Of a stretch of 15,912 bases of DNA, positions 1,582-15,878 are shown piece by piece. Each line of letters opens with the position of its first letter. Position 1 is the first letter of the stretch. The notes beneath the pieces were generated by a model, which was not told where the DNA came from, did not search any database, and saw nothing but the letters and a program-made list of their open reading frames with translations. Source of the DNA: Candidatus Fervidifonticultor quintus (lineage in GTDB: Bacteria; Sysuimicrobiota; Sysuimicrobiia; Sysuimicrobiales; Humicultoraceae); assembly GCA_031459535.1 (NCBI GenBank), contig JAVKIJ010000077.1, forward strand, positions 1-15,912, read 5' to 3'. The position numbers and the translations under genes are program-made.

Positions 1582-3348
1582 CTACGATGAGGAGGTGGCC
1601 GTAGGCGCGGCGCCCTCCGCCGGAGTGGCGTCGAGAACCTGCAGTCGGAGCAGGCGCGCATACGCGCCGTCCCGGGTCACCAGATCGTCGTGCCGGCCGT
1701 CCTCGACCACCCGGCCCTGATCGAGGACAATGATGCGGTCCGCGCGCCGGATGGTGGATAACCGGTGGGCGATGATGAACGTCGTGCGACCCCGGGTGAT
1801 GTGGTCGATGGCGTCTCGGATCTGCGCCTCAGACTCGCTGTCCAGCGCCGAGGTCGCTTCGTCGAAGATCAACAGGCGTGGGTTGTTCAGCAGCGCTCGT
1901 GCGATGGCCAGGCGCTGCCGCTGGCCGCCCGAAAGCTGCAGGCCGTCGTCGCCCAGCAGCGTGTCGTAACCGTTACGCAGGCTGACGATGAAGTCGTGGG
2001 CGTTGGCGGCGCGGGCGGCGGCCGTCACCTCCTCCAGGGAGGCGTCGGGCCGCGCGTAGGCGATGTTGTCGCGAACCGTGCCGGCAAACAGCACGGTCTC
2101 CTGAGGGACCAGGCCGATCTGTGCGCGCAACGACCGCAGCGTGACCCGCCGGAGGTCACGACCGTCGATCTCCACGCGCCCCTCGACCGGGTCGTAGAAC
2201 CGCGCCAGCAGGTTCACCAGCGTGGACTTCCCCGCGCCGCTGGCACCCACCAGCGCCACGCGCTGCCCCGGGGGGACCTCTAGCGTGAGGTCGCGCAGCG
2301 CCCACCGGCCCGGCGCGTACGCAAAGGAGACGCGGTCAAACCGCACCCGGCCCGAGATCGGCGGCAGTGGGACCGCGTCAGGACTCTCGTGGAGCTGCGA
2401 AGGCTCGTCCAGTAGCGCCCGCACCCGGCCGAACGCGCCAAGGGCCTGGCGCAGACCCGAGTAGTGGCGGGTCAGCCCCACGGCCGGCTCGACTGCGAAC
2501 CCCACGTAGGCCAGGAACGCCACCAGCGAACCGGCGGTGAGATGGCCGGCGTTGACCCGCTGACCGCCCAACCAGAGCACGAGCACCAGGCCCAGCGCCG
2601 TCAGAAAACTCACCACCGGGACCTGGACCGCCACAAGACGGGCAATGCGCACATTGGCGGTGAAGCTCTGCTCGTTGCGCGTTCGAAACCGACCGATCTC
2701 ACGGTCCTCGCGCGCGAAGGCCCTGATGACCCGGGCGCCGGTGAACGCTTCCCGGATGAGCCCGGCCAGCCCCGCGACGTGCTCCTGGGCGCGGACGGTC
2801 GTCCCCTGGATCTCCTGGCCGAACCGGCGCGCCAGCGTGCCCACCAGCGGAATGACCAGGGCCACCGCCAGTGCCAGCTGCCAGTCGATCCACACCAGCA
2901 TCACCACGATGCCGAGCAACATGAGCGCGGTGGAGATGGCGTCGATAGCCCCGGTCAGCAACTGCGACTGCACCACCTGGGTATCCTGCAGGCTGCGCGC
3001 GATGGCATCGCCGCTCTGCCAGACCGCGAAGCGGTCCAGCGACCACCGCTGAATGCGGGCGAACAGATCCTGACGAAGGTCGGCGGTGACCCGATGACTC
3101 AGGTAGAACATCAGGTAGAGCTGCGCGTAGAGCATCAGGCTGCGCAACCCGAAGAGCAGCAGGATGATCAGCGTGGCGCGATTGAGAGCCGCAAACGAGC
3201 GGGTCGCGATGAGCTCGTCGATCAGGCCGCCGGTGTAGCGTGGCACCCAGAGGTTGACGGCCGTCACGCACAAGGCCGCGCCCAGGGCGCCCGCGAGATG
3301 GAGGTGGTAGCGGGCCACATAGGCAATCAGGCGCTGTATGTCGCTCAT
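1582..3348 (-). CDS. msbA: ABC exporter with fused TMD and NBD, MsbA-like (probable lipid A flippase), 588 aa
   Basis: N-terminal transmembrane domain of about 6 helices, Walker A GASGAGKST, Q-loop LVPQE, signature LSGGQRQR, Walker B/D-loop LIFDEATSALD and H-loop IAHRLST. ATG 3348 overlaps the lpxB-like stop (ATGA). The family call is strong; the MsbA function is inferred from context. Confidence 0.85.
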   Translation of the reverse strand: MSDIQRLIAYVARYHLHLAGALGAALCVTAVNLWVPRYTGGLIDELIATRSFAALNRATLIILLLFGLRSLMLYAQLYLMFYLSHRVTADLRQDLFARIQRWSLDRFAVWQSGDAIARSLQDTQVVQSQLLTGAIDAISTALMLLGIVVMLVWIDWQLALAVALVIPLVGTLARRFGQEIQGTTVRAQEHVAGLAGLIREAFTGARVIRAFAREDREIGRFRTRNEQSFTANVRIARLVAVQVPVVSFLTALGLVLVLWLGGQRVNAGHLTAGSLVAFLAYVGFAVEPAVGLTRHYSGLRQALGAFGRVRALLDEPSQLHESPDAVPLPPISGRVRFDRVSFAYAPGRWALRDLTLEVPPGQRVALVGASGAGKSTLVNLLARFYDPVEGRVEIDGRDLRRVTLRSLRAQIGLVPQETVLFAGTVRDNIAYARPDASLEEVTAAARAANAHDFIVSLRNGYDTLLGDDGLQLSGGQRQRLAIARALLNNPRLLIFDEATSALDSESEAQIRDAIDHITRGRTTFIIAHRLSTIRRADRIIVLDQGRVVEDGRHDDLVTRDGAYARLLRLQVLDATPAEGAAPTATSSS

Positions 3349-4538
3349 GCCGTCAGCGTGTCCGCCAGGACATGGTCCAAGATGCGGCCTGACGCGCCGA
3401 CTTCCCGGGGGACAGACTCCAGGGCCTCCACCAGCGCGGCCCTGGCCGCCTCGTCCCTGACCAGACGCGCACATTCTGCCGCCACCTGCTCAGGCGTCAC
3501 GTTCCCGATCAACTCGGGCATGACGCGCCGGCCGGCCCGCATGTTGGGAAGCGCCACGTACGGCCGGCGCCGCACGTACGCCCGGGCGATTCGCAGCCGC
3601 AATGCCGGGCCGAGGTAGGGGATCCGCGTGATCCACTCAATGAGACCTTCGGCCGGGATCTGGGGCGCCAGGCTGAACGGCAGCACGACCAGGCTGGGGA
3701 TCCGCAGGATGGCCAGCTCCAGGGTGTTGGTGCCGGGGATCGTCAGCACCAGGTCAGACCCCACAACGCTGGGCCAGCCGCCGAAGCCGACCTCAATGCC
3801 CGCCGCGTCCAGGGTCTGTCGGTACCGAGCCACCAGCGCGGCGCGGGTCTGCGGCGACACAAACGGCGAGATGATGGTCTGCAACCGGGCCTCGGGGAGC
3901 TCGCGTCGCAGTGCCGCCGCGGTCTGGACCCAGAAGGGGAACACCGCGGAGAAGACCGTATCGCGGCTTCCGGGCAGGAAGGTCACCGTGGGGTGCGTCC
4001 CATTGCCCTGGGCGGGGGCACTGGCAGCATCGTGCAGGACCGCGTCGTAGCGAGGATCACCGACGACCGTGACCTTCTCCGGGGGCACGCCATACCGTAT
4101 CAGGCGCTCCCGGAGTTCCGCCGTGGGCACGAAGATCGCCCGAAACGACCTGTGGCCGTGTGCAATGTGCGCCCGCTCCACGAAGGCCGACGCGGGCGCC
4201 TTCCAGCGCCGGGCCAACCGCCGGCTGAACCAGAGGTCCCCGCCGACGTGCAATACTGCGGCCGCTCCCTCCGGCCTCCACCCCGGCAGGCCCAGCGCCA
4301 GGCGTGTGACGTCCCGCGGATCGAGGATACGGTCGAACAGGCCGCTGGCCTCGGCGGCCGCCCGCTCCTGACCGCTGGCAAACTGGCAGGGCGGCAGGCA
4401 GAGGGTGATCTCGAGGGCCTCCGGCCGGTTTCGACGCCGCTTGCGGGCTTCCGTCGCAATCGGCATGGCCCACCCGGCAACTTCGCCCGGGCCGTTGCCG
4501 ACGACGATGAGAGAGGTAACCGGCGGGCCGGCAGCCAT
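3345..4538 (-). CDS. lpxB: Lipid-A-disaccharide synthase-like protein (LpxB/GT19, divergent type), about 397 aa
   Basis: LpxB-like motifs in the canonical order: VVGDP (cf. VGHP), FLPGSR (cf. LLPGSR), PGTNTLELAILRIP (cf. SGTATLE..L...P) and VALPN...VMPELI (cf. SLPN...PELLQ). The N-terminal loop is GNGPGE. Start is ATG 4538 or TTG 4547. Confidence 0.78.
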   Translation of the reverse strand: MAAGPPVTSLIVVGNGPGEVAGWAMPIATEARKRRRNRPEALEITLCLPPCQFASGQERAAAEASGLFDRILDPRDVTRLALGLPGWRPEGAAAVLHVGGDLWFSRRLARRWKAPASAFVERAHIAHGHRSFRAIFVPTAELRERLIRYGVPPEKVTVVGDPRYDAVLHDAASAPAQGNGTHPTVTFLPGSRDTVFSAVFPFWVQTAAALRRELPEARLQTIISPFVSPQTRAALVARYRQTLDAAGIEVGFGGWPSVVGSDLVLTIPGTNTLELAILRIPSLVVLPFSLAPQIPAEGLIEWITRIPYLGPALRLRIARAYVRRRPYVALPNMRAGRRVMPELIGNVTPEQVAAECARLVRDEAARAALVEALESVPREVGASGRILDHVLADTLTA

Positions 4539-4555
4539 CGCGCGCAAGACGCTCC

Positions 4556-4585
4556 ATTATAGTCTCCGGCTGGGGACCATGGCAA
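4556..4585 (-). promoter_or_regulatory. Putative sigma70-type promoter for the lpxB-msbA-GT2-ligase operon
   Basis: The minus strand reads TTGCCA (4585-4580), an 18-bp spacer, then a perfect TATAAT (4561-4556), directly upstream of the lpxB-like start in otherwise very GC-rich DNA. Confidence 0.65.
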
Positions 4586-4665
4586 TTCGCGTCGCAGGCC
4601 GCATACCGTCGCTGGACGTGCCGGTTCGAAGGTCGCTGGCTCGCGAGCGGCGAAACGTGGGACGG

Positions 4666-6276
4666 ATGCGCCCCGGCGTCTTGGCACTTCTGGTCGGGCT
4701 GGCGGGGCTGGTGATCCTGGCGGCTGCGCCGGTGCCGCACGTTGACGGGGACGCGCTGCTCTACGCCAGGATCGCCGCCAACGTCCTGGCCTCCGGTGAC
4801 TGGCTCACGTTTCACCACCCTGGCTGGCTGGTCGACAAGCCCCCAATGGTGTTCTGGTTCATGGCCGGTTCATTCTGGCTGCTGGGGATCTCGGACGCCA
4901 CGATGCGGCTGTGGCAACTGCTGCTGGCGCTGGGACTGATGGGGATCACCACGGCGGCCTCGCGCGCCTCGGGCGGCTCACGCGTCGAGAGCCTGCTCGC
5001 GGCGTTGATCCTGGGTACTGCACTGCAGTTCTTCTACCAGGCCACTGCACCCGGACAGGATGTGGCCCTGACGGTCTTCCTCTCGTGCGCGGTCTACGGT
5101 CTGCTCCGCTACGTCCAGCGCGGCGGAGCATGGTGGATGGGGGTCAGCAGCGTAGCGGTGGCGCTGGCCATGCTTACCAAGGGCCTCGTCGGTCTCGCCC
5201 TCTTCGGCGCTGTAGTGATGGTTGCGGCAGCGTGGATTCGCCGCGCGCCGCCGTATCCGTGGCCTCGCATGGCGGCGCACGCCGGGGCGGCGGCCGTGGG
5301 ATTCGCCGCGGTGGCACTGCCGTGGTACGCCTACGGGGTCTGGCGGCACGGCGAGCCGTTCGTGAATACGTTTCTCACCTCGGGGGCGCTCGGGATCGGC
5401 CGATTCTTCCGGCCGGTGCTCTCCGCGCCGCCGCCTTACTGGATCGCCATCTTCGCCTACCTGCCGTTGCTGCTCCTGGGCGCGTTGCCGTGGACGCCTG
5501 CGTTCCTGGCTGGCTTGCCAGGCATCGCCAGGATCGTACGCGAGGACCCGCCGGGCCCACGGATTGTCGTCGCCTGGTTCGTGGGGATGTTCGCGGTACT
5601 GTCCCTGTCGTCGGGCGACAAGGTCTTTCGCTACCTGCTCCCGGTGTACCCGCCCCTCGCCGTCTTGACGGCACGGGGCCTGATAGGACTGGTGGAGGAT
5701 CGCCGGCGCCTGCGCGCAGCCGGATGGCTGGCGGTGGGGCCTGCCGTCGTCCTGGCGGCAGCGGGCTTCTGGTCGCTGTGGGCGGCATTTCCGCCTGCCC
5801 GTGGGCTGCTGGTGGCGGTGGTGCTGCCCGGCGTCGGCATGCTCGCGGTGGCGGTGGCGGGCTTTGGCGCTGCGGCTCTGGCGGGGGCAGGGCGCGCGGC
5901 GATCCTGATCGCCGCCGTGGGTGCCATGACCGGGTATGCCTTGTTCGAGCGCAGCCTGGTGGTCCACAGGACGGCGGTGGATCCCTGGCCGGCCATCGTG
6001 ACGGCCGCCGCCCCGTACGCGCAGGCGCGCCCGCTCCTGGTGCTCTACGGCCGAGCCGCTGAAGGGTTCAACTTCGCCCAGTTCCACTTCGAGACCCCGG
6101 TCCTGACCGCGCAGTCGCTGGACGAGCTGCGCGCCCTCTGGCAGCAGCACCTACTGGTGGTCGTGCCGCTCGAGCGGGCCGGCGAGCTCGCTGCGCTGCG
6201 CCCGACGCCCGTGGTCCTGCTGCGCAGCGATGCCCGCGTGCTCCTGATTTCCAACAACCCTCCGCTCGGGCGCTGA
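4666..6276 (+). CDS. ArnT/GT83 (PMT_2 family, GT-C) polyprenyl-phosphate-sugar-dependent glycosyltransferase, about 536 aa
   Basis: Motifs GDALLYARIAANVLASGDW, DKPPMVFW, QDVALT, MLTKGLVG, ALPWY, YLPLLLLGALPW and K.FRYLLPVYPPLA, with many TM helices and a soluble C-terminal tail. The start is uncertain: in-frame ATG 4579, GTG 4657 or ATG 4666. The track's 4405 start overlaps lpxB. Confidence 0.85.
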   Translation: MRPGVLALLVGLAGLVILAAAPVPHVDGDALLYARIAANVLASGDWLTFHHPGWLVDKPPMVFWFMAGSFWLLGISDATMRLWQLLLALGLMGITTAASRASGGSRVESLLAALILGTALQFFYQATAPGQDVALTVFLSCAVYGLLRYVQRGGAWWMGVSSVAVALAMLTKGLVGLALFGAVVMVAAAWIRRAPPYPWPRMAAHAGAAAVGFAAVALPWYAYGVWRHGEPFVNTFLTSGALGIGRFFRPVLSAPPPYWIAIFAYLPLLLLGALPWTPAFLAGLPGIARIVREDPPGPRIVVAWFVGMFAVLSLSSGDKVFRYLLPVYPPLAVLTARGLIGLVEDRRRLRAAGWLAVGPAVVLAAAGFWSLWAAFPPARGLLVAVVLPGVGMLAVAVAGFGAAALAGAGRAAILIAAVGAMTGYALFERSLVVHRTAVDPWPAIVTAAAPYAQARPLLVLYGRAAEGFNFAQFHFETPVLTAQSLDELRALWQQHLLVVVPLERAGELAALRPTPVVLLRSDARVLLISNNPPLGR

Positions 6277-6350
6277 CGCAGCCCGGCTCGACAAGGGAAG
6301 CTCCGGAGCCCGGCAGAATATGGATCGGGACTTTGGCGTTGAGGTGTGGC

Positions 6351-7901
6351 GTGCGCGGCCTTCTCTGCCTGGCGGCCATCGTGCTCACACTGGCTGTCCA
6401 GCGCGCCGGCGCCCAGCCAGCCTCGGTGACGGTCGAAGCCGATCTCATTAGTTATGATTCGGTTCGACGGATCGTCACCGCGCAGGGGAATGTGCGCATC
6501 ACCGGTCCCCGCTACCGGGTCTTCGCCGATGCGGCGCGCTACGACCTGGGCGGAGAAGTCATGGTGGCCACCGGTCAGGTTCGGATCGTCGATGACCGTC
6601 GCCGCGAGCTGCGCGGAGCGACCCTCACGTACTTCACACGAACCGATGAGGTGCGCCTGGAGCCCAGCGAGGGGATCATCGATCCACAGCGTCGCGTCTT
6701 CGTGCGCGCGGCGCGGGCGCAGTTCACCCCGCAGCGCATCACGGGCGAGGAGAGCTTCGTCACCACGTGCGATCCCCGTCAACCGTTGGTGCACGTGACC
6801 GCGCGGCGCATTGAGATCGTACCCGAGGAGCAGCTCGTCGCCCACGACGCCGCGGTGTTCTTCGGCTCCCGCCGGATCTTCGGCATGTCGCGCTTCGTGG
6901 TCTCGCTGGTGCCCGGCGAGGAGGGCGTGCTGGTGCCCGGCTTCGGACACAACACCGTGGACGGGTTTTGGGTGGACCATCGGGCGCGCCTGCGGCTCCC
7001 GTCCGCCCGGGGGATGGTGCAGCTCAAGTACGGCACCCAGTCCGGGTTGTTCGGACTCCTGACGCTGACCTCTCCCGCACCGGCGTACACAGCGACGCTG
7101 CGGCTGGGGCGCACCCAGACCGTCAGCGACGAGCGCGAGCGCAGCCTCCTGCCCTACTACGTGGCCGAGATCGGCGCCCAGAGCCGGCCGGCGCCTGTGG
7201 GCCGGACGCCGTGGTCCTGGTCCGTCTCGGGCACAGCGGGGTGGTTCGAGGATCAGACGGCGCGGGTCTCGACCACGCGCCTGGACGGCCAGGTCCTGCT
7301 CCAGTCCAGCAGCATCTCCATCGCTCCCCGTCTGTCGTTCTCGGCGAACGCAGGCGTGCAGCTCACTGCCTACGGCACGGGCGCGAACAGGACGATCGCC
7401 AGCGCCGGGGTCGTGCTGTCGTACGCCGTAGATGCCCACACCACGGCCACGGCGGGCTATACGCTGCGTGGGATCAGCGGGGCTTCACCGCTGACCATCG
7501 ACGTCGTCGATCCGGCGAGTACGGTGAGCCTCGGGATGACCCGCGCGGTGACCGACCGGTATGTCGTCTCGACGTCGGTGGCCCACAACTTCGCGGTTCC
7601 AGAGACCACGGCCTGGGCGGCGGTCGCGGTGGCCGTCGGGTCGTCGTGGGAGGTCGGGGTGTCTGCGGTCTACAACTTCCGGCTGGCGGCATTCGACGAC
7701 ATTGACTACACCCTGCGACGGATCTGCGACTGCGTCGACGTGGTAGTGCGCTACCGGCAGGTCCGCAGCGAGGTGTCCATCGAGTTGGGCCTCGTGGGCT
7801 TCACCCAGCGCCCAGGGATCTTCGTACCGCGCTCAACGCCGCGTCCGCCGGCCTCGGAGGAGAACACGCCACGTCAGGCGATGGAGAACAACGCGAGATG
7901 A
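6351..7901 (+). CDS. lptD: LPS-assembly protein LptD-like (signal peptide, OstA/beta-jellyroll domain, short beta-barrel), about 516 aa
   Basis: GAGGT Shine-Dalgarno at 6341-6345 before GTG 6351 (alternative TTG 6333). Signal peptide ends AGA|Q. OstA-type segment VEADLISYD..IVTAQGNVRI..ADAARYD, then FVTTCDP (cf. FTSC), then alternating amphipathic beta-strands, with C-x-C near the C-terminus. Confidence 0.72.
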   Translation: MRGLLCLAAIVLTLAVQRAGAQPASVTVEADLISYDSVRRIVTAQGNVRITGPRYRVFADAARYDLGGEVMVATGQVRIVDDRRRELRGATLTYFTRTDEVRLEPSEGIIDPQRRVFVRAARAQFTPQRITGEESFVTTCDPRQPLVHVTARRIEIVPEEQLVAHDAAVFFGSRRIFGMSRFVVSLVPGEEGVLVPGFGHNTVDGFWVDHRARLRLPSARGMVQLKYGTQSGLFGLLTLTSPAPAYTATLRLGRTQTVSDERERSLLPYYVAEIGAQSRPAPVGRTPWSWSVSGTAGWFEDQTARVSTTRLDGQVLLQSSSISIAPRLSFSANAGVQLTAYGTGANRTIASAGVVLSYAVDAHTTATAGYTLRGISGASPLTIDVVDPASTVSLGMTRAVTDRYVVSTSVAHNFAVPETTAWAAVAVAVGSSWEVGVSAVYNFRLAAFDDIDYTLRRICDCVDVVVRYRQVRSEVSIELGLVGFTQRPGIFVPRSTPRPPASEENTPRQAMENNAR

Positions 7902-9277
7902 ACGTGCCTGTCCGCCTCAATCCCGAGATGTTCCGCGAGTACGACATCCGCGGCGTGGTCGGGACCGACCTCACACCCCAGACTGCCGAGCGGATCGCGC
8001 GGGCGTACGCCGCCCTGCTGGCGCCGGGCTCGCCCGTGGTGCTGGGTCGGGACAACCGGGAACACTCGCCGGCCCTCGCCGAGGCTGTCGCCCGCGGCCT
8101 GGTCGCGTCGGGCTGTCAGGTTGTGGACATCGGCACCGTGATCAGCCCCACGTTCTACTTCGCGCGGGTCCACTGGGGCATCGAGGGCGGGGTCATGGTG
8201 ACGGCGAGCCACAACCCGCCCCAGTTCAACGGGTTCAAACTGGGCGGCGGGCCTGGGACACTGTACGGCGAAGAGATCCAAGCGGTGCGTCGCCGGGCGG
8301 AGGGCGGACCATTCCGAGCCGGCCGCGGTCACCTGGAGGTTCGGGACGCGACCACGCCGTACCTGGACGTCCTGCGGGAGAAAATCCGCCTGGGCCCTCG
8401 GCCGCTGCGCGTGGCCCTCGACTGCGGGAACGGCACCGCCAGCCTCATCGCCCCCCGGGTGCTCGCCGATTGGGGCGCCGAGGTGCTCCCGCTCTACTGC
8501 GAGTCGGACCCGCGCTTCCCGCACCACCATCCCGATCCGGTGGATCCGCACAACCTGGGCGACCTGGTGGCGCTGGTGCGCCGCGAGCGCTGCGACCTCG
8601 GTATTGGCCTGGACGGCGACGGCGACCGCCTCGGGGTCGTGGACGACCAGGGGACGATCCTTTGGGGCGACCTGCTCATGATCCTGTACTGGCGGGAGAT
8701 CCTGCCGCGGTATCCGGGAGCCGATGTGATCGTCGAGGTCAAGTGCTCGCAGGCGCTCCCAGACGAGGTCCGCCGTCTGGGGGGCAGGCCGTTCTTCTAC
8801 CGCACCGGGCACTCGCTGATCAAAGCCAAGATGCGCGAGATCGGCGCCGTCTTCACCGGTGAGATGTCGGGCCACATGTTCTTCGCCGACGAGTATTACG
8901 GGTTCGATGACGCGCTGTACGCCGCGGGCCGCCTGCTGCGCATCCTGTCCCACGCCGACCGGCCGCTCTCCGCGCTGCTTGGTGATGTCCCCCGGTACCC
9001 CATTACGCCCGAGGTCCGCATCAGCTGCCCTGACGACCGGAAGTTTGCCATTGTGGCCGCGCTGGCCGATCAGTTCAAGGCCAGCCACGAGGTCATCGAC
9101 GTGGACGGAGCACGGATTCTGTTTGACGAGGGCTGGGGCTTGGTGCGGGCCAGCAACACGCAGCCAGTACTGGTGGTCCGCGCCGAAGCGACCAGCGAGC
9201 CGGCGCTGGCGCGCATCAAGCAGGCGATTGCCACGGCGCTGGCGCAGTATCCTGAGGTGGGCCCGCTCACCTGGTGA
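7898..9277 (+). CDS. manB: Phosphomannomutase/phosphoglucomutase (AlgC/ManB type), 459 aa
   Basis: FREYDIRG start, catalytic TASHNP, metal loop DGDGDR, sugar-binding GEMSGH and C-terminal [11 protein letters not shown] overlaps the lptD stop (ATGA). Confidence 0.95.
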
Positions 9278-9281
9278 GGCG

Positions 9282-10337
9282 ATGACCGCCATGCGCAAAG
9301 CGCTGATCACGGGGATTACGGGACAGGACGGGTCCTACCTGGCGGAGTTCCTCCTGGCGAGGGACTACGAGGTCCACGGGGTCATCCGGCGGGCCTCGAC
9401 GTTCAATACCGACCGCATCGACCACCTCTACCAGGATCCACACGAGCCGCAGCCCAGGCTGCGCCTGTACTATGGCGACCTGACCGACGGCACAGGCCTG
9501 CGGGTGTTGCTGGAGCAGGTGGAGCCCGATGAAGTCTACAATCTCGGGGCGCAGTCCCATGTGCGCGTCTCGTTCGACCAGCCCGAGTACACCGCCGAGG
9601 TCGTGGCCCTGGGGACCCTGCGGCTGCTGGAGGCGATTCGCGACTACCAGAGGCGGACGGGCCGGGTGGTGCGGTTCTACCAGGCGGGTTCCTCGGAGAT
9701 GTTCGGGAACTCGCCGCCGCCGCAGAACGAGCAGACGCCCTTCTATCCCCGCAGCCCCTACGGTGTGGCCAAGGTCTACGCGCACTGGCAGACGGTGAAC
9801 TATCGTGAGGCCTACGGCCTGTTCGCGGCCAACGGCATCCTGTTCAACCACGAGTCGGCGCGCCGGCACGAGACGTTCGTCACACGCAAGATCACCCGGG
9901 CTGCGGCGCGGATTGCCCTGGGGCTGCAGGACCGGCTCTATCTTGGCAACCTGGACGCCCGGCGCGACTGGGGGCACGCCGCGGACTATGTCGAAGCCAT
10001 GTGGTTGATGCTGCAGCACCCGTGGCCCGATGACTTCGTGATCGCCACCGGGCGGTCGCGCTCGGTACGGGAGTTCCTCGAGGCGGCTTTTGGGCTGCTG
10101 AACCTGGAGTGGGAGCGCTACGTTGTCATCGACCCCAGGTATTTCCGCCCCACAGAAGTCGACCGTCTGGAAGGCGATGCCTCGAAGGCCCGGGCGGTGC
10201 TCGGGTGGGCCCCGAAGCGCACCTTCGACGACCTAGTGCGTGAGATGATCGACCACGACCTGCAGATGGCCAGAGCCGAGCGAACGCTTCGAGACTCCGG
10301 CCACCGGGTCAGCTCAAGGGGAGCCGGCGGTGGGTGA
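9282..10337 (+). CDS. gmd: GDP-mannose 4,6-dehydratase
   Basis: [72 protein letters not shown] and RYFRPTEV. Start is ATG 9282 or 9291; the track's 8859 start lies inside manB. Confidence 0.97.
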
Positions 10338-11301
10338 CCATGCGTTCTGGTCGGGCCGCCGCGTGCTCATCACCGGCGGGGCGGGCTTTCTCGGATCTGT
10401 GGTGGTGGAGCGCCTCCAGGCAGCCGGCGCCCTCTGCGTCGTTCCGCGCCGGCGCCACTACGACCTCACGGACCCGGCGGCCGTCGAGCGGCTCTTCGCC
10501 GACAGCCAGCCGCAGGTCGCCTTCCATTTGGCCGCCGCCGTGGGCGGCATCGGCGCCAACCTGGCCAACCCCGGCCGGTTCTTCTATGAGAACATGGCCA
10601 TGGGCCTCAACGTCGTGGAGCAGGCCCGCCGGTACGGCCGCCTGGAGAAGATCGTGATTGCCGGCACCACTTGCGCCTATCCGGCACAGATCCCCCTGCC
10701 GTTCCGCGAGGACGACCTGTGGGCCGGCTACCCCGAGCCGACCAACGCGCCCTACGGCGTCGCCAAGCGGGCGTTACTGGTAATGGCCCAGGGCTACCGG
10801 GCCCAGTACGGCCTCCGGGCCATCTACCTGATCCCGGCCAACCTCTACGGTCCCGGCGACAACTTTGATCCCCAGACTTCTCACGTGATTCCGGCGCTCA
10901 TCCGCAAGACGGTGGAGGCCATCGAAGCCGGCAGCACGGAGATCGTCGGATGGGGGGATGGGACACCCACGCGCGAGTTCCTGCACGTCCGGGACGCCGC
11001 GCGAGGGCTGATCCTGGCTGCTCAGGATTATGACGCCCCCGAACCGGTCAACCTGGGAACTGGCCAGGAAATCTCCATCGCTGCGCTCGCGGCGTTGATC
11101 GCGCGCCTGGCGGGGTTCGAGGGGCGCATTGTGTGGGATCCATCCCGGCCAGGGGGCCAGCGCCGGCGCCGGCTGGACACCTCTCGAGCCAAGGCGGCGT
11201 TCGGCTTCCAGGCAGAGATCGCCCTCGAGGACGGGCTGCGGGAAACCATTGCCTGGTACAGGGCCCACCGGGCCGCGGTGACGTCTGTCCAGACCACGTG
11301 A
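10330..11301 (+). CDS. fcl: GDP-L-fucose synthase (GDP-4-keto-6-deoxymannose epimerase/reductase), 323 aa
   Basis: [24 protein letters not shown] (catalytic Cys), [11 protein letters not shown] (YxxxK), [19 protein letters not shown] (catalytic His) and [11 protein letters not shown]. It directly follows gmd with an 8-nt overlap. Confidence 0.95.
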
Positions 11302-12431
11302 GGATTGTCCTCACCGTCGAGTTCTACTACCCGCGCCGAGGAGGCGCCGAGCAGGTGGTAGCGAGCCTCGCCGAGCGCCTGGTGCGCAGGGGCCATGAGA
11401 TTGTCGTGGCCACGAGCGCCGACCCCCGGCGCCGCGAAGACCACCACAACGGCGTGCGCATTGTCGGCTTCGGCATCACCGGCAACGCGTCCCGCGGTAT
11501 GCGTGGCGATCTGCGCCGGTACCGTCGCTGGCTGCTGGACGAGCCGTGCGACGTGATGATGAACTATGCGGCGCAAGTCTGGCCCACGGACGCTGCCCTG
11601 GATCTCCTCGACCAACTGCCGTGTGCGCGGGTCCTGGCCACGTGCGGCTTCTCCGGGCTGCACGGCGCCCGCCGCCTGCTGTACTGGAGGTACTATCGGC
11701 GGATGCGCGCTCGTGCGGGCCTCTACCACGCCTTCGTCTATCACGCGTGCTCCGGCGCCGACGTCTCGTTCGGGCAGCGGTTCGGCCCGAGCGTCCAGGT
11801 GGTCATCCCCAACGGGGCGGAGGCGTCCGAGTTCGACGGGCCCCGCGGTGAATTCCGCAGGCGATGGGGCATCGGCGCCCGGCCCCTGTTGCTGCACGTG
11901 GGCAACCACTACCGCCTCAAGGGTCATCGCGACCTCTTCGCGCTCATGGACGCCCTCGGGCCGCGCGCGGGCGACCTGACGCTGGTCATGGTCGGTGACG
12001 ATCCCGGCGGCCGGACGAGCTGCTGGCAGGCGTGCGTGCGGGCCGCGGCAGCGCGGTCGAACGTGATGCTGCTCTCGGGCCTGGCCCGAGAAGAGGTGGT
12101 CGCCGCGTTTCGAGATGCCGACCTGGTCCTGCTACCGTCGCGGTTCGAGGTGGCTCCTCTGGTCCTGGTCGAAGCCATGGCCGCAGGCGTACCGTTCGTC
12201 ACCTACGACGTGGGCAATGCCCGTGAACTGGCAGGGGGCGTCGTCACCACTGGCATCTCTGGGCTGATCGAGGCCACGGAGAGTCTGTTGTACGACGAGG
12301 ACCGCCGTCTGGCACTCGGGGCGCAGGGGCGCCAGGCGCAGCGGCACCATCTGGAGTGGGATCGTATCACGGACCGCTACGAGGCTCTATTCGCCGCGCT
12401 GACGGAGCCGAAGGGATCGGGGCAGGCGTAG
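11298..12431 (+). CDS. Glycosyltransferase family 4 (GT-B), about 377 aa
   Basis: Starts at GTG 11298 (GTGA overlap with the fcl stop). Motifs YYPRRGGAE, VIPNG, HVGN..LKG and the Ex7E motif EVAPLVLVE-AMAAG. Confidence 0.92.
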   Translation: MRIVLTVEFYYPRRGGAEQVVASLAERLVRRGHEIVVATSADPRRREDHHNGVRIVGFGITGNASRGMRGDLRRYRRWLLDEPCDVMMNYAAQVWPTDAALDLLDQLPCARVLATCGFSGLHGARRLLYWRYYRRMRARAGLYHAFVYHACSGADVSFGQRFGPSVQVVIPNGAEASEFDGPRGEFRRRWGIGARPLLLHVGNHYRLKGHRDLFALMDALGPRAGDLTLVMVGDDPGGRTSCWQACVRAAAARSNVMLLSGLAREEVVAAFRDADLVLLPSRFEVAPLVLVEAMAAGVPFVTYDVGNARELAGGVVTTGISGLIEATESLLYDEDRRLALGAQGRQAQRHHLEWDRITDRYEALFAALTEPKGSGQA

Positions 12432-12435
12432 AGGT

Positions 12436-14475
12436 ATGGACGCCGCGTCCATCCAGGTCTCTGTAGTGGTCTTGACGTGGAACTCCTCCCGGAACGTCGG
12501 GCGGGCCCTTGCCGCTCTTTCCCAGGAGTGCCACGGTCTGGCAGCCGAGGTCATCGTGGTCGACAACGGATCCACGGACGATTCGCTCGCGGTGGTCGCC
12601 GCCAGCGCGCCGCAGGCGCGCGTGGTGCGCAACACCAGGAACCTCGGGGTCGCCCCTGCGAGGAACCAGGGCATGCGCCAGGCCAGGGGCCGCTACGTGC
12701 TGCTCCTCGACAGCGACACCGAGATGATGCCCGGGAGCCTGCGTGCCATGGTGGAGTTCCTCGACGCGCGTCCCGAGGTGGCAGTGGTCGGCCCCAAGCT
12801 GGTCTATCCGGACGGCACGCTGCAGTTCAGCTGCCGCCGCTTTCCCACCGTGCCCGGCAAGCTCTTCCGGCTGTTGCCGCTGGCCTGGCGGCGGGCCCTC
12901 CCATGGGTGGCGGACGAAGAGCTGATGGGCCTGGATCACTCCATCGCACAGCCGGTGGACTACGTCATCGGTGCCTGCCAGCTCATCCGCCGGTCTGTCA
13001 GCGAAGCGCTGGGCGGGCTGGACGACCGCATCTTCTACGGCCCCGAGGACGTGGATTTCTGCCTGCGAGCCTGGAAGGCCGGATGGGAGGTCTGGTACCT
13101 GCCAGGGGCTGTGGTGATCCACAGCGAGCAGCGCGTCACCCGCAGACGCCCGGGAATGCTGACGTGGCATCACGGCCGGGCGCTGGTCTACTACTTTGCC
13201 AAGCATCGGTACGTCTGGAAGCGCCCGGTCCCTGAGATTCCCGCGCCGGTGCTTCGGAAATCCGGCCGTCCGCCGCGAGCCCTGGTCCAGGCCCCGCGGG
13301 TGCCCCGGGTGCCCAAGGTTCTCCAGCTGGTCACCCTGTCGGAGTGGGGCGGGGCACAGACGCACGTGCTCGCCCTGGCCAGGGGTCTCCGGGGTGCCTA
13401 TGACGTCACCATCGGCTGCGGGCCCGGGGGCCCGCTGGTCACCCGTGGGCGCCAAGCCGGCATCCGCGTGGTGGAGATCCCGTCGCTAGTCCAGCCTCCT
13501 CGCTTCTTCGCCGACCTGGCCACGCTGTGGAGGCTGGTGCACTGGATCCGGGCCGAATCCTTCGAGATCGTCCACTGTCACAGCACCAAGGCCGGGCTGC
13601 TGGGTCGGATCGCGGCGAGACTGGCCCGTGTGCCCGCCGTCGTCTTCACGGCCCACGGATGGCCGTCGCTGGATGCGCTCCCGCCTCTCGTCCGCCTGGC
13701 CTACCAGATCGCGGAACGGGGCGTGGCTCGCCTCAGTGACGTGGTCATCTGTGTGTCGGAGCACGACAGGCGTCGGGCTCTGGAGATGGGGGCCGGAACC
13801 CCCGACCGCCTCGTGGTGGTCCGCAACGGCGTGGATCCCGCGCTGTGGGCGCGACCAACAGGTCACCTGCTCGAGCGGGGGTATGTCGCTCCCATGGACC
13901 GACCCGCCCACGACGGCGCCTGCACCGCAGTCTGTGTGGCCAGACTGACCGTGCAGAAAGACCCGCTGTTGCTGCTGAGGGCCTGGAAGATGGTCCGGGG
14001 TGCGCACAGGCTCGTCCTGATCGGGGACGGGCCTCTGCGAGTCGAGCTAGAAGTTTTCTCCGCTCGGGAGGGATTGTCCGACCGCGTCGCGTTTCTGGGC
14101 GCGCGCGACGACGTACCCGTGGCGCTGGGGGCCGCAGACCTGTTCGTCCTGGCCAGCCGGTGGGAAGGGCTGCCGTTCGCCGTGCTGGAAGCGATGTTCT
14201 TTGGCCTGCCGGTCGTCGCCACTCGCGTGGGCGGGATCCCCGAAGCGGTCGCAGACGGCGAGACCGGCATCCTGGTGCCGCCGGGCGATGCTCGGGCGCT
14301 GGCCGAGGCGGTGGAGCGTCTGGCGGCCGATCCGCACCTTCGGCGTAAGATGGGCGCCGCGGGCCGGCGGCGTGCCGAGGCTTGTTTCACCGAGGCCCGC
14401 ATGCTGGCCGAGAGCGCCGACGTCTACGCGCGGCTGCTGATGCCCCGGGGCGCGGCGGTGGTGCCCTCGCGGTGA
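12436..14475 (+). CDS. Fused bifunctional glycosyltransferase: N-terminal GT2 (WbbL-like) and C-terminal GT4, 679 aa
   Basis: GT2 part: SVVVLTWN, VVDNGSTD, LLLDSD, GACQLIR, FYGPEDVDFC. A Pro/Arg-rich linker follows. GT4 part from about residue 292: GGAQ, VHCHSTKAG, FTAHG, VVRNGVD, ARLTVQK, GDGP and the Ex7E motif EGLPFAVLE-AM. One uninterrupted frame. Confidence 0.92.
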   Translation: MDAASIQVSVVVLTWNSSRNVGRALAALSQECHGLAAEVIVVDNGSTDDSLAVVAASAPQARVVRNTRNLGVAPARNQGMRQARGRYVLLLDSDTEMMPGSLRAMVEFLDARPEVAVVGPKLVYPDGTLQFSCRRFPTVPGKLFRLLPLAWRRALPWVADEELMGLDHSIAQPVDYVIGACQLIRRSVSEALGGLDDRIFYGPEDVDFCLRAWKAGWEVWYLPGAVVIHSEQRVTRRRPGMLTWHHGRALVYYFAKHRYVWKRPVPEIPAPVLRKSGRPPRALVQAPRVPRVPKVLQLVTLSEWGGAQTHVLALARGLRGAYDVTIGCGPGGPLVTRGRQAGIRVVEIPSLVQPPRFFADLATLWRLVHWIRAESFEIVHCHSTKAGLLGRIAARLARVPAVVFTAHGWPSLDALPPLVRLAYQIAERGVARLSDVVICVSEHDRRRALEMGAGTPDRLVVVRNGVDPALWARPTGHLLERGYVAPMDRPAHDGACTAVCVARLTVQKDPLLLLRAWKMVRGAHRLVLIGDGPLRVELEVFSAREGLSDRVAFLGARDDVPVALGAADLFVLASRWEGLPFAVLEAMFFGLPVVATRVGGIPEAVADGETGILVPPGDARALAEAVERLAADPHLRRKMGAAGRRRAEACFTEARMLAESADVYARLLMPRGAAVVPSR

Positions 14476-15878
14476 CGGCTCTCCCTCGCTTTCGCCAACA
14501 GCTCCAGGTCTCGGAGCGGAAGGTGCTGCTTGCGCTCGGAGATCTGGCGATGCTTTCCCTGGGTCTGTTCTTCGTGTTGGCCGTACGGCTCCAAGCGGCG
14601 TTCGAGACGACGCCGGCCGTCCGGCGCGCGACTTGGTTCGTCCTGCTGGCGGCGGCGTGGGCGGTCGCAGGAACGCTGGCAGAGGTCTACGATCTACGCC
14701 GCGCCGCCAAGCTGGGGGTCGGACCGCTGCGGGCCGCCGCCGCGGTGCTGGCCGCCGATGCGATCTATCTCGCCATTCCCTACGTGACGCCCTATCTGCA
14801 CGCATCGCGGCTGACCATTGTCCTGTTCGCTCTGGCGACGGGCGGCCTCGTAGCCCTGTGGCGGGTGCTCTACGCGGCCGTCCTGGTGCAGCCGTCGTTC
14901 CGGCACCCCGTGCTCATCCTCGGCGCCGGTCCACCCGGCCGGGAGATCCTGGCCGCGATGCGGTCGTACGGATCCACCGAGTACCTCCCCGTCGGATTCG
15001 TGGACGACGACCCGGCCCTGGTCGGCAAGGAGGTTGACGGCCTGGAGGTCCTCGGACACCACCGCGAGCTGCACAGGGTGCTGGAGCGCACCGGGGCGTC
15101 CGAAGTCGTCGTCGCGATTCCGGCGGGCGCACCCTCCACCGGCCAGCTCTTCCAGGCCCTCGTGGACAGCCACGAGCGCGGGATTGCGGTCACCCCCATG
15201 CACCGCCTGTTTGAAGCGCTGACCGGACAGGTGCCGGTGGAACATGCCGGGCGCAACCTGGCCGTGGTGCTGCCCCTCGACCGTCCCCCTCCGGTACTCT
15301 TCGACTCGTTCAAGCGCGTCACCGACGTCCTGATGGCCACCGCCGGTTTGCTCCTCACCCTGGTGGTGACGCCGTTGGCGGCGGTGGGGCTCTGGTTGGA
15401 GGACCGGGGACCGGTGTTCTACCGGCAACGCCGCGTCGGTCAGGCCGGTCGCCAGTTCGAGATCCTGAAGTTCCGCACGATGGTCGAGCACGCCGAGATC
15501 AACGGGCCCCAGTGGGCGGCGGTCGGCGACCCGCGGGTCACCTGGACGGGACGCATCCTCCGGCGCCTCCACCTGGATGAACTCCCGCAGGCCTGGAACA
15601 TCTTGAAGGGCGACATGAGCGTGATCGGACCGCGTCCGGAGCGCCCGGAGTTCGTCGAAGCGCTCCAGGCGGCGATTCCGTTCTACCGAACCCGACTCAG
15701 CGTCCGGCCCGGGGTCACCGGCTGGGCCCAGGTCAATTTCGAGTACGGCGACTCGATCGAGGACGCCCTGATCAAGCTGCGCTACGATCTGTACTATATC
15801 AAGCACCGGTCGCTGCTGCTGGAGCTCACCATCCTCGTGCGGACGCTGGGGCACGTCTTCCGCCGCGGCGGACGCTAG
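14472..15878 (+). CDS. Initiating polyprenyl-phosphate glycosyl-1-phosphate transferase (WcaJ/WbaP/CpsE-type), about 468 aa
   Basis: GTG 14472 overlaps the upstream stop (GTGA). It has N-terminal TM helices, a Rossmann-like VLILGAG and VGFVDDD, and the catalytic domain KRVTD..FYRQRRVG..KFRTM..LDELPQ.WNILKGDMSVIGPRPERP..RPGVTGWAQV..DLYYI. Confidence 0.95.
   Translation: MTALPRFRQQLQVSERKVLLALGDLAMLSLGLFFVLAVRLQAAFETTPAVRRATWFVLLAAAWAVAGTLAEVYDLRRAAKLGVGPLRAAAAVLAADAIYLAIPYVTPYLHASRLTIVLFALATGGLVALWRVLYAAVLVQPSFRHPVLILGAGPPGREILAAMRSYGSTEYLPVGFVDDDPALVGKEVDGLEVLGHHRELHRVLERTGASEVVVAIPAGAPSTGQLFQALVDSHERGIAVTPMHRLFEALTGQVPVEHAGRNLAVVLPLDRPPPVLFDSFKRVTDVLMATAGLLLTLVVTPLAAVGLWLEDRGPVFYRQRRVGQAGRQFEILKFRTMVEHAEINGPQWAAVGDPRVTWTGRILRRLHLDELPQAWNILKGDMSVIGPRPERPEFVEALQAAIPFYRTRLSVRPGVTGWAQVNFEYGDSIEDALIKLRYDLYYIKHRSLLLELTILVRTLGHVFRRGGR

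Follow-up and report, generated by a model that had tools for sequence, protein, structure and literature searches.

A short LptD-like protein with a predicted 18-stranded barrel as a probable LPS translocon in Candidatus Fervidifonticultor quintus

The window analysed here is a stretch of 15,912 nucleotides from Candidatus Fervidifonticultor quintus (Sysuimicrobiota; contig JAVKIJ010000077.1 of assembly GCA_031459535.1). On its forward strand, at positions 6351–7901, lies a gene for a short LptD-like protein, defined by its ORF and translation. The reading frame has no stop between 6333 and a TGA codon at 7899–7901, and the sequence makes the GTG at 6351 the likely start: a GAGG motif lies 6 nt 5′ of it, and a database protein of 99% identity is also 516 residues long, which fits the 516 aa translated from this codon. 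Residues are numbered throughout from the TTG at 6333 (P0001, 522 aa). A Sec signal peptide can be read from the translation at 6351–6413 (forward strand, residues 7–27), with cleavage presumably between AGA and Q; AlphaFold2 models residues 4–25 as a helix. A search returned 63 homologues, of which 60, with lengths of 460–546 aa, align over 87% or more of the query, so the feature is not a chance reading frame. Contigs from a metatranscriptome library match positions 6034–7217 and 7777–8482 with ∼99% identity, so that parts of the gene are covered; this hints weakly at expression, as DNA carry-over is possible. Such contigs cover the window in every one of its 30 bins, and their depth cannot rank the genes.

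The neighbouring genes include several that point to lipopolysaccharide (LPS) synthesis. An MsbA-like ABC exporter, a candidate lipid A-core flippase, is encoded on the reverse strand at 1582–3474 (ABC_membrane, E = 1e-42; ABC_tran, E = 2e-36); its matches to TIGR02204 MsbA_rel (1.5e-148) and TIGR02203 MsbA (3.3e-141) both fall below the curated cut-offs. Also on the reverse strand, at 3345–4547, is an LpxB-like lipid-A-disaccharide synthase (Pfam LpxB, E = 1.5e-8, 34.4 bits against a cut-off of 22.6; TIGR00215, 2.1e-13, under its cut-off), the ORF of which overlaps msbA and probably has an over-called 5′ end. Directly upstream of the short gene, on the forward strand at 4405–6276, is a membrane glycosyltransferase of the ArnT/PMT_2 type (PMT, 8.2e-14; PMT_2, 3.5e-13; ArnT PRK13279, 4e-20, under its cut-off). 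Its position is not conserved in genome G001, which has a HEPN/nucleotidyltransferase pair there instead. Downstream, a phosphoglucomutase/phosphomannomutase gene (pgm; 7898–9277, forward strand, four PGM_PMM domains) has an ATG that overlaps the stop codon of the lptD-like gene (ATGA).

We compared this linkage in six other genomes from five families of the 94-genome phylum. An msbA-like gene accompanies the short gene in five of the six (G001, G080, G047, G092 and G077), with none seen in G062. PGM is present at the locus in four (adjacent in G001, G047 and G062, and at the same locus in G092), and LpxB is found in two, G001 and G080, in the same position. A second short-type copy in the present genome, on contig C58, also adjoins a PGM gene. 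The window and the short-gene loci are rich in genes of the O-antigen/EPS type (Wzy_C, Wzz, GDP-fucose synthesis). Elsewhere the genome encodes LpxC (3.9e-83), one LptF/G (3.7e-89) and BamA, and contig C60 carries LptB together with LptA-like and LptC-like genes. Judged by gene content from profile matches, the organism appears to make LPS and to possess the rest of the Lpt bridge. The main text of the Sysuimicrobiota genome paper (PMC11604079), whose abstract reports chemoautotrophic enrichments of members of the phylum, makes no mention of LPS, outer membrane, diderm, Lpt or Gram-negative.

Residues 33–191 of the short protein (6429–6905, forward strand) form a β-jellyroll of the LptD/LptA type with 12 strands, including the invariant Cys146 (6768–6770). 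The HMM support for this LptA/OstA-type domain is weak and the structural match is clear. Pfam LptD_N (PF03968) gives E = 0.01 and 16.5 bits, below its cut-off of 20.4, and the NCBIfam LptD model PRK04423 gives E = 3.9e-4 over residues 33–212; an orthologue from family f4 does clear the Pfam jellyroll cut-off (34.2 bits). Searching the PDB with a profile of the short family (A1) returned LptA (PDB entry 7zax, E = 8e-4) and LptD (PDB entry 7omm, E = 2e-3), with residues 42–200 aligned. In the VIA structure comparison, the jellyroll superposes on LptA (PDB entry 2r1a) with a Z-score of 14.4 and an r.m.s.d. of 2.2 Å over 117 residues, and on LptH (PDB entry 4uu4) with a Z-score of 13.8 and an r.m.s.d. 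of 2.1 Å.

A predicted β-barrel occupies residues 203–487 (6939–7793, forward strand) in the confident AlphaFold2 model, which was built from an alignment of 32 sequences and has a mean pLDDT of 89.3 and a pTM of 0.73. DSSP assigns 18 strands to this region of the model, with the four-residue element 328–331 counted with its neighbour, and the longest loop has at most 11 residues. Strand number and barrel closure rest on this predicted model, which has 18 strands rather than the 26 of LptD. By parity, the turn carrying Cys465 and Cys467 would face the periplasm, as the jellyroll does, only if the strand count is even. The fold itself is consistently that of LptD: full-length LptD takes every one of ranks 1–15 in Foldseek (E = 7e-21 to 2e-14), VIA matches LptD with Z-scores of 15.7–22.7 and an exhaustive structure search of 48,161 chains has LptD as its top three (Z = 16.7–19.1). 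A TamB/AsmA-type protein or an unrelated outer-membrane protein as the best fold was rejected, as LptD came first in all three structure searches. Taken alone, the barrel matches 18-stranded OccAB1 (Z = 15.0–15.1, r.m.s.d. of 3.9 Å, 252 aa), and the whole barrel also superposes on OpdQ, MOMP, chitoporin and maltoporin; residues 196–491 span entire 18-stranded barrels with r.m.s.d. values of 3.5–4.3 Å. The 16-stranded Omp85 barrels (BamA/TamA/Sam50) match only up to residue ∼460. The LptD barrel model PF04453 has no match in the short protein at E ≤ 10 and none in the genome; across the phylum, 17 of the 94 genomes have a match at E ≤ 1 and one clears the cut-off.

Cys146 and Cys467 (7731–7733) are present in all 32 sequences of the short family. 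The latter sits in the periplasmic turn that joins strand 16, the third-last, to strand 17, the second-last. In E. coli LptD, according to the accessible text of a recent review (PMC12644819), the jellyroll is anchored to the β24–β25 turn of the 26 strands; the pair here corresponds in topological position to the E. coli disulfide, and the two residues may likewise be bonded. At strand 1, Pro202 (32/32) and Gly205 are invariant. The barrel ends in a G-x-x-x-F motif, with Gly486 in 27 and Phe490 in 18 of the 32 sequences. Beyond it, a Pro/Arg-rich C-terminal tail (residues 488–522; 7794–7898, forward strand), presumably periplasmic, is modelled with pLDDT values of 40–59. It varies in length and sequence, shrinking to 13 aa in the remotest members of the family, and only a VPR-type motif and Pro499 are conserved in it.

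Much of this had been proposed in an initial annotation of the window. It described a signal peptide and an OstA-type jellyroll, both of which are borne out by the translation and by the match to LptA (PDB entry 2r1a, Z = 14.4), followed by barrel segments running from LVPGFGHN to EVSIELGLVGF, two strings that are indeed in the translation. Its count by eye of about 18 strands agrees with the 18 DSSP strands of the model, and the Pro/Arg-rich tail that it noted is there. Its suggested structure prediction and Foldseek comparison gave a barrel that is not 26-stranded and a best match to LptD, not to an unrelated outer-membrane protein or to TamB/AsmA. The HMM searches that it suggested were mixed: PRK04423 matched and Pfam LptD_N did so weakly, while PF04453 did not.

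The same annotation had seen no lptE in the window, and Pfam likewise found no LptE among its 13 ORFs. The LptE model PF04390 has no match in the 88.85%-complete assembly, and no genome of the 94 in the phylum has an LptE match above the cut-off (three are weak), with a model that is insensitive outside a few phyla and matches only three of 14 control genomes. LolA likewise has no match in this 88.85%-complete assembly. DUF3769 (PF12600) has none in the short protein; across the genome it matches the C58 copy alone (E = 0.02, 14.1 bits against a cut-off of 20.5). These data are consistent with a short LptD that may be independent of LptE. Nothing that closes the lumen of the short barrel was identified; with 18 strands and all loops of 11 residues or fewer, the pore would be wide open unless closed, and the plug-free reading may therefore be wrong.

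A second, longer form of the protein bears directly on the function of the short one. This paralogue of ∼695 aa, a canonical LptD size, occurs in four of five same-genus genomes (G004–G007), and NCBI names some of its members ‘LPS-assembly protein LptD’. It has ∼28 DSSP strands after residue 210 and aligns with LptD structures over 520–577 residues (Z = 16–21). Its gene lies in an operon with LptC-like (lptC′) and LptA-like (lptA′) genes, and after it is encoded a conserved small secreted protein of ∼200 aa, which matched nothing in Pfam, NCBIfam or a PDB sequence-profile search. The two forms are homologous over their whole length (hhalign probability 100%, E = 5.2e-45) and have in common the jellyroll, the positions of the cysteine pair and the C-terminal motif; the long form has ∼10 more strands, in two insertions. 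They form separate clades, each with an SH-aLRT of 100, and are thus both old; the branching order between them is not settled by the tree. The initial annotation had also asked for a second, full-length lptD, and here the answer is divided between the genome and its relatives. When the 88.85%-complete assembly was searched by tblastn with the G007 long protein and three neighbours, no long operon was found; the matches were all cross-hits, either to lptA/lptC or to the short genes. In G007 and G005 the long gene has a protease gene on its downstream side. That protease gene maps here to contig C15, and the relevant side of C15 carries another protease fragment and no long operon. At this completeness the assembly could have missed a long operon, which could be the LPS route.

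Profile A1 finds a match in 89 of the phylum's 94 genomes. Within the high-quality set of 54 genomes, by our own reading of the match lists, the short form is present in 49 and the long form in 27: 25 have the short form only, 24 have both, three have the long form only and two have neither, and LpxC is found in 51. The short form is thus near-universal and linked to msbA/lpxB, whereas the long form is patchy and resides in the lptC′–lptA′ operon. In family f4 the long form is absent from all 23 genomes and LpxC is present in 22; G001, which is 97% complete in four contigs, has the short form only, plus LpxC. Three high-quality genomes (G009, G051 and G054) are long-only, so the short form was either missed there or is dispensable.

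We therefore favour the reading, with a probability of roughly 0.65, that the gene is a reduced LptD orthologue acting as the outer-membrane LPS translocon of a Terrabacteria-type LPS diderm, probably without a plug. The suggestion of a reduced-barrel, LptD-like LPS insertase in a non-proteobacterial diderm, already made in the initial annotation, gains support from the predicted fold and strand count, from the LPS-gene context and from the genome. The pathway might run as follows. Lipid A-core would be made by LpxB, encoded next door, and LpxC, encoded elsewhere in the genome, and would be flipped by the adjacent MsbA-like exporter; LptB, the single LptF/G and LptC would extract the LPS, which would pass from one LptA-type jellyroll protein to the next until it reached the jellyroll at the N terminus of the short protein. 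The acyl chains may leave at the junction of jellyroll and barrel, while the saccharide would cross the 18-strand lumen and exit sideways through the seam between strand 1, with its invariant Pro202, Gly203 and Gly205, and strand 18. A putative Cys146–Cys467 disulfide would staple the jellyroll to the strand-16/17 periplasmic turn, as an equivalent of the β24–β25 staple of E. coli. In the 26-strand form, additional strands accommodate the LptE plug; the short barrel apparently lacks them, which suggests that it is probably plug-free.

The presence of the long form raises the alternative that the short protein is a jellyroll-barrel exporter of some other envelope lipid (a glycolipid, a lipoprotein or a polysaccharide–lipid conjugate) and that, wherever the ∼695-aa paralogue occurs, it is the one that truly translocates LPS; in this genome it would be hidden in the unassembled 11%. 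The long form is of canonical size, with ∼28 strands and Z-scores of 16–21 to LptD, shares its operon with lptC′, lptA′ and the gene for a small secreted partner, is found in the same-genus genomes G004–G007 and is called ‘LPS-assembly protein LptD’ by NCBI in some of its members; the window is rich in O-antigen/EPS-type genes, and for Borrelia it has been proposed that lipoproteins are moved by homologues of LptD (available text of PMC11784454). Yet 25 of the 54 high-quality genomes carry the short form only while 51 have LpxC, the long form is missing from all 23 genomes of family f4, msbA and lpxB are linked to the short gene and not to the long one, none of the four long-operon genes was found in this assembly by tblastn, and in Acetonema longum it is the short form that is expressed and detected, as the accessible text of PMC13018214 has it. 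We consider this alternative unlikely.

A division of labour, in which both forms insert LPS, the 18-strand protein serving lipid A-core or short glycoforms and the large barrel with its small partner serving bulky O-antigen-capped LPS, so that either can be lost, would account for the shared jellyroll, cysteine pair and C-terminal motif (with end-to-end alignment at E = 5.2e-45), for the two old, separate clades (SH-aLRT 100 each) and for the occurrence of all four presence/absence patterns among the 54 high-quality genomes. However, three long-only cases are about what chance predicts from ∼5% genome incompleteness, nothing ties either form to a glycoform, and the short gene lies among O-antigen-type genes, the opposite of what this scheme expects; it strikes us as decidedly improbable. 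That the protein is an ordinary 18-strand diffusion porin, unconnected with lipid export, to which an OstA-like domain in the periplasm happens to be attached seems very improbable indeed. The barrel alone does fit Occ/OprD, maltoporin, chitoporin and MOMP best (Z = 14–15), but its identity to porins is 6–12% and it has no constriction loop (none exceeds 11 residues); moreover, each of the three structure searches puts LptD at the top when the whole protein is compared, the cysteines of the LptD-type pair are fully conserved, the msbA/lpxB linkage recurs across the phylum and there is end-to-end homology with proteins that sources name LptD.

To return to the short protein as an LPS translocon, textbooks and, in their accessible text, recent reviews (PMC13721041, PMC12644819) still present LptD as a barrel of 26 strands that depends on LptE. 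An apparently plug-free LptD of 18 strands, near-universal in a whole phylum of LPS producers, strengthens the argument, first made for Acetonema, for a far smaller minimal LPS insertase. It offers a compact, high-confidence model with which to ask how LPS passes through and out of a barrel that has no LptE, and within the phylum a small form can naturally be compared with one of canonical size that has a candidate new partner. This has practical weight because LptD–LptE is an antibiotic and vaccine target and the essential core defines what can vary. We put forward, tentatively and with some doubt, that a jellyroll-barrel of 16–18 strands is the self-sufficient, plug-free core from which large LptDs arose by hairpin insertions at two hot spots, each enlarged lumen then recruiting a plug. 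The phylum would keep both states: the plug-free 18-strand form, and a ∼28-strand form with a secreted, non-lipoprotein plug of ∼200 aa unrelated to LptE. If so, LptE-type plugging evolved more than once.

Compared with the proteobacterial LptD–LptE complexes (E. coli, Shigella, Klebsiella and Neisseria; PDB entries 4q35, 5iv9, 7omm and 9kn3), which are its best structural matches (Z up to 22.7), the short protein has the same jellyroll continuous with barrel strand 1, a conserved Pro/Gly motif at that strand, a jellyroll cysteine paired in position with one in the turn that links the third-last strand to the second-last, and a common pathway of MsbA, LptB, LptF/G, LptC and LptA. It differs in having 18 rather than 26 strands, 516 rather than ∼780 aa, no PF04453 match and no loop above 11 residues, with no LptE or LolA found in the assembly; it has one conserved cysteine pair and a third cysteine, whereas proteobacterial LptD has two disulfides. 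Cyanobacterial LptD (DUF3769, PF12600; PMC4365693) is likewise from the Terrabacteria side and has an OstA domain and a barrel outside PF04453. With ∼610 aa in the Atlas cluster, the cyanobacterial proteins exceed the short protein in length, and the short protein itself has no DUF3769 match, whereas six of 26 distant short relatives do; a control search with DUF3769 gave matches in Synechococcus and Thermus.

Small LptDs of this type are widespread among diderms outside the Proteobacteria. The closest parallels are the short LptDs of diderm Bacillota, and the novelty implied in the initial annotation was overstated, since such proteins are already in print (PMC13018214, PMC5491611; accessible text of each). 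For Acetonema longum F7NLY8, of 480 aa with a 16-strand AlphaFold barrel and detected by proteomics, the 2026 report (PMC13018214, Nat Commun) concluded, in its accessible part, that it is the functional LptD and set aside a 26-strand-like paralogue; Veillonella parvula Vpar_0647 is another (PMC5491611). The protein described here is thus not new in kind. Like these, it has a signal peptide, a periplasmic jellyroll and a small C-terminal barrel (516 aa here, 480 aa in F7NLY8), and, as in diderm Bacillota going by the available texts, it goes with no identified LptE, a single LptF/G and a second, 26-strand-like LptD paralogue in the genome or clade. Look-alike clusters of 460–514 aa, named ‘LptD family’, seem to be commonest in Bacillota, the taxa being taken from Atlas cluster labels only. 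Family A1 aligns along its whole length with a diverse short class, A4 (26 proteins of 444–512 aa, with 18–41% identity to their first member, F7NLY8 not being among the proteins compared), over 433 columns with an hhalign probability of 100% and E = 1.9e-74; class A4 is without one hairpin of the present protein (residues ∼398–426). This would be the extra hairpin that makes 18 strands here and 16 in the published F7NLY8 barrel. The present protein also comes from another phylum, and its gene is linked to msbA, lpxB and pgm, whereas that of Veillonella, in the accessible account, has two conserved upstream genes.

The structure predicted for the product of the gene at 6351–7901 (+) is that of a reduced, 18-strand LptD. 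The AlphaFold2 model, built with 32 homologues in the alignment, has a mean pLDDT of 89.3 and a pTM of 0.73; it contains a 12-strand jellyroll (residues 33–191), a barrel of 18 strands (residues 203–487, counting the four-residue element 328–331 with its neighbour) in which the longest connection is at most 11 residues, and a Pro/Arg-rich C-terminal tail (residues 488–522) that is disordered in the model. Foldseek, the comparison proposed in the initial annotation, returned full-length LptD from the PDB at ranks 1–15 (E from 7e-21 to 2e-14), and LptD also took the top three places when the model was compared exhaustively with 48 161 representative chains (Z of 16.7–19.1). VIA-align gave Z of 15.7–22.7 to LptD with an r.m.s.d. 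of 10–15 Å, which is high because the barrel sizes differ. Next after LptD, residues 196–491 alone superpose on 18-stranded barrels across the full extent of the latter, for example OccAB1 (Z of 15.0 and r.m.s.d. of 3.9 Å over 252 residues), OpdQ, Campylobacter jejuni MOMP, chitoporin, maltoporin and ScrY. With the 16-stranded Omp85-type barrels (BamA, TamA and Sam50) the alignment ends at around residue 460 and the final hairpin is unmatched. Parity gives the same count, since the C465-D-C467 turn is periplasmic, on the side of the jellyroll, only if the number of the preceding strand is even. As the whole-length superposition and the parity agree, the estimate of about 18 strands originally made by eye is confirmed for the predicted model, as is the likeness to LptD, which comes first in all of the structure searches.

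The HMMs weakly suggest an OstA/LptD jellyroll in the sequence: Pfam LptD_N matches with E = 0.01 (16.5 bits, below the cut-off of 20.4) and NCBIfam LptD PRK04423 with E = 3.9e-4 over residues 33–212. Searched against PDB sequences, a profile of the 32-member family (A1) finds LptA at E = 8e-4 (7zax) and the LptD of Neisseria at E = 2e-3 (7omm); with this LptD residues 42–200 align, a stretch that takes in the cysteine of T-C-D/S and the L-P-G motif of strand 1. All 32 aligned members have Cys146, in the jellyroll, and Cys467. The mature protein contains three cysteines in every case: the third occupies position 465 in 27 members and position 138 in the other five, never both and never neither. 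In the model, Cys467 lies in the turn that joins strands 16 and 17 of 18 on the periplasmic side; counted from the C-terminus, this is the position of the β24–β25 turn to which disulfides tie the jellyroll of the 26-strand Escherichia coli LptD (PMC12644819). Pro202 and Gly205 of strand 1 are invariant, and the last strand terminates in G-x-x-x-F (Gly486 in 27/32 and Phe490 in 18/32), corresponding to the glycine four positions before an aromatic residue reported for LptD-like barrels (PMC10629564).

The window has a G+C content of 68–73% and shadow ORFs are abundant. The open frame extends from 6333 to its TGA (7899–7901), and residues are numbered here on the 522-residue product counted from TTG 6333. 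A GAGG lies 6 nt 5′ of GTG 6351, a candidate start that gives 516 residues, equal in length to a database protein with 99% identity. The product has a Sec-type signal peptide ending in AGA|Q (residues 25–28), and the stop codon and the ATG of the following gene overlap (ATGA). Contigs from a hot-spring metatranscriptome library span 6034–7217 and 7777–8482 at ∼99% identity and are weak evidence of expression, with DNA carry-over being possible.

Upstream on the minus strand are genes for a GT2 glycosyltransferase (651–1661; Pfam 4.9e-29), an MsbA-like ABC exporter (TIGR02204 1.5e-148 and TIGR02203 3.3e-141, both below the cut-off) and an LpxB-like protein (3345–4547), and an ArnT/PMT_2-type transferase gene (4405–6276, +) lies immediately 5′ of the target. 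The region 3′ of it (7898–15878) is an O-antigen/EPS-type block that points to a surface glycan containing fucose; it encodes PGM/PMM, GDP-mannose 4,6-dehydratase, GDP-L-fucose synthase, a polyprenyl-phosphate sugar transferase and three glycosyltransferases, with a GT4 and a fused GT2+GT4 protein of 679 residues in the block. Two longest-ORF calls are too long at the 5′ end: the 492-residue ORF at 8859–10337 has its Gmd domain from residue ∼147 and overlaps pgm by ∼420 nt, and the lpxB ORF at 3345–4547 overlaps msbA by 130 nt. The real starts of both are probably internal. The ORF at 285–1604 (+; 439 residues, no family) is antisense to the GT2 gene and is most probably a shadow frame of the kind found in high-G+C DNA.

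At 88.85% completeness and 5.24% contamination, the genome assembly consists of 138 contigs. The organism is a diderm that makes LPS, as LpxC (3.9e-83), BamA and an lptC–lptA–lptB–lptF/G row on contig C60 are encoded together with the LPS genes of the window. LolA had no match in the assembly and Lgt had two. A single LptF/G was found (3.7e-89), and one gene only implies a homodimeric permease. Such a permease has been reported for Negativicutes. The inner-membrane operon with this lone gene occupies C60:31903–35148, the contig terminating just 5′ of lptC; its LptA-like protein (342 residues) is longer than E. coli LptA, and an extra LptA-like gene is found on contig C68. ArnT/PMT_2-type membrane glycosyltransferase genes adjoin Lpt genes both in the window (4405–6276) and beside lptF/G (C60:30245–31963), a pairing that hints at lipid A/core modification coupled to export.

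Two other LptD-like proteins came to light, one in this assembly and one in related genomes. The first is a second short copy (C58:27267–28862, −), which shares 38% identity with the target and lies among msbA-like, pgm and wzz genes of its own. No orthologue of it was found in the same-genus genomes; its best matches (46–49%) come from other genera, where the short form is single-copy, and it falls in a different subclade of the tree (SH-aLRT 98). Its contig has the lowest G+C content of the 138 (0.660; mean 0.687, SD 0.009) and may be a contaminant or a transferred island. The other is a family of ∼695 residues that came out of the A1 search of the phylum; NCBI calls some of its members ‘LPS-assembly protein LptD’. 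Homology to the short family extends over its whole length (hhalign probability 100%, E = 5.2e-45), and it has some 130 additional residues following strand 2 and ∼30 close to short-form residue 408. Its model (pLDDT 83.2) has ∼28 strands beyond residue 210 and aligns with LptD over 520–577 residues (Z of 16–21) and with LptD core barrels over 406–417 residues (r.m.s.d. 5.5–7.2 Å); in size the long form is canonical. At four loci outside the window (G007:C59, G006:C34, G013:C45 and G051:C256) it follows lptC-like (191 residues) and lptA-like (412 residues, three OstA repeats) genes. The initial annotation had considered that a full-length lptD elsewhere in the genome might do the job; neither the long form nor any of the four genes of its operon was found in the 88.85%-complete assembly, and the operon is present in four of five congeners (G004–G007; not G008), so that it may have been missed here. 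In a synteny check, a protease gene found 3′ of the long gene in G007 and G005 mapped to contig C15, where the side in question carries another protease fragment and not the operon.

GTDB lists 94 genomes for the phylum, all of a single order divided into seven families. A1 matches 89 of these, and 52 of the 54 with ≥90% completeness and ≤5% contamination. A short form was scored only if the match entered the barrel outside a long gene, and a long form only at E < 1e-90 or from clear long-type fragments; tallies were read from the matches listed, to which 106 further A1 matches are additional. Among the matches listed, 25 of the 54 have the short form only, 24 have both, three have the long form only (G009, G051 and G054) and two have neither (G036 and G072). 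Three long-only genomes is about the chance expectation at 5% incompleteness. LpxC is found in 51/54 (85/94 overall). Family f4 has LpxC in 22/23 genomes and, among the matches listed, the short form in 22/23 and the long form in 0/23; in G001 (97% complete, four contigs) LpxC is accompanied, on the same basis, by the short form only. Hence, among the matches listed, the short form is near-universal and the long form accessory. The tallies include two unpublished genomes (G016 and G024), from which no sequence was used and without which the f1 counts shift by at most two. In six other genomes inspected, the short gene lies near msbA-like, lpxB and pgm genes (G001, f1), msbA-like and lpxB (G080, f5), an msbA-containing gene and pgm (G047, f3), msbA-like and pgm at the same locus (G092, f6), a divergent msbA-like gene (G077, f4), or pgm and an O-antigen ligase-type gene with no msbA-like gene seen (G062, f4). 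The LPS export genes are tied to the short gene rather than to the long one. The fold, the cysteines, the msbA/lpxB linkage and the LPS genes of the genome support the proposed LPS insertase of a non-proteobacterial diderm; from these we infer that LPS translocation in this organism is most likely the task of the target.

The suggested independence from LptE fared less clearly: none of the 94 genomes has an LptE match over the cut-off (three weak matches, all in f3), with an HMM that was positive in only 3/14 controls. The target probably works without an LptE-type plug; its 18-strand barrel, with short loops only, may need something to close it. Directly 3′ of the long lptD in f1 and f3 is a gene for a conserved secreted protein of ∼200 residues, with a type-I signal peptide lacking a lipobox cysteine and no match in Pfam, NCBIfam or PDB sequences. 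Its distribution follows the long form (38/94 genomes; f1 20/33, f3 6/22, f4 0/23 and f5 12/12), and the protein is a candidate for a plug or partner, other than LptE, of that form.

Homologues of the target are labelled ‘Armatimonadota bacterium’ MAGs in the source records and Candidatus Sysuimicrobiota in the Atlas clusters. Full-text literature searches and a term search of the phylum’s genome paper yielded no account of either LptD or LPS for this phylum. Against 1.84 billion representatives, A1 finds 6320 proteins at E ≤ 1e-3 (163 at E ≤ 1e-30), in length classes of ∼450–530 and ∼640–830 residues; Atlas look-alikes of 460–566 residues are most frequent in Synergistota and Bacillota, as leads. 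In a quick maximum-likelihood tree of 55 hand-picked rows, the 18-strand short proteins and the long ones each form a clade (SH-aLRT 100 for both) and both stand apart from the PF04453 LptDs (98); the tree does not order the two. A set of 26 distant short proteins (444–512 residues) aligns with the target family from end to end (hhalign E = 1.9e-74); they have 16 strands, as one hairpin (residues ∼398–426) is absent. LptD_N matches 15/26 and DUF3769, the LptD barrel family of cyanobacteria (PMC4365693), matches 6/26.

Short LptDs have been described before. An earlier study did not find LptD/E in the clades of Acetonema longum and Veillonella parvula (PMC5007114), Vpar_0647 of V. parvula is an outer-membrane LptD homologue (PMC5491611) and a database survey places LptD-like proteins in stepwise barrel-size classes (PMC10629564). 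A. longum F7NLY8 (480 residues, 16-strand AlphaFold barrel) was seen by proteomics and judged to be the functional LptD; beside it A. longum has a 26-strand-like paralogue and one LptF/G, and no LptE (PMC13018214). The target differs from this kind by one hairpin; it adds to the kind and does not found a new one.
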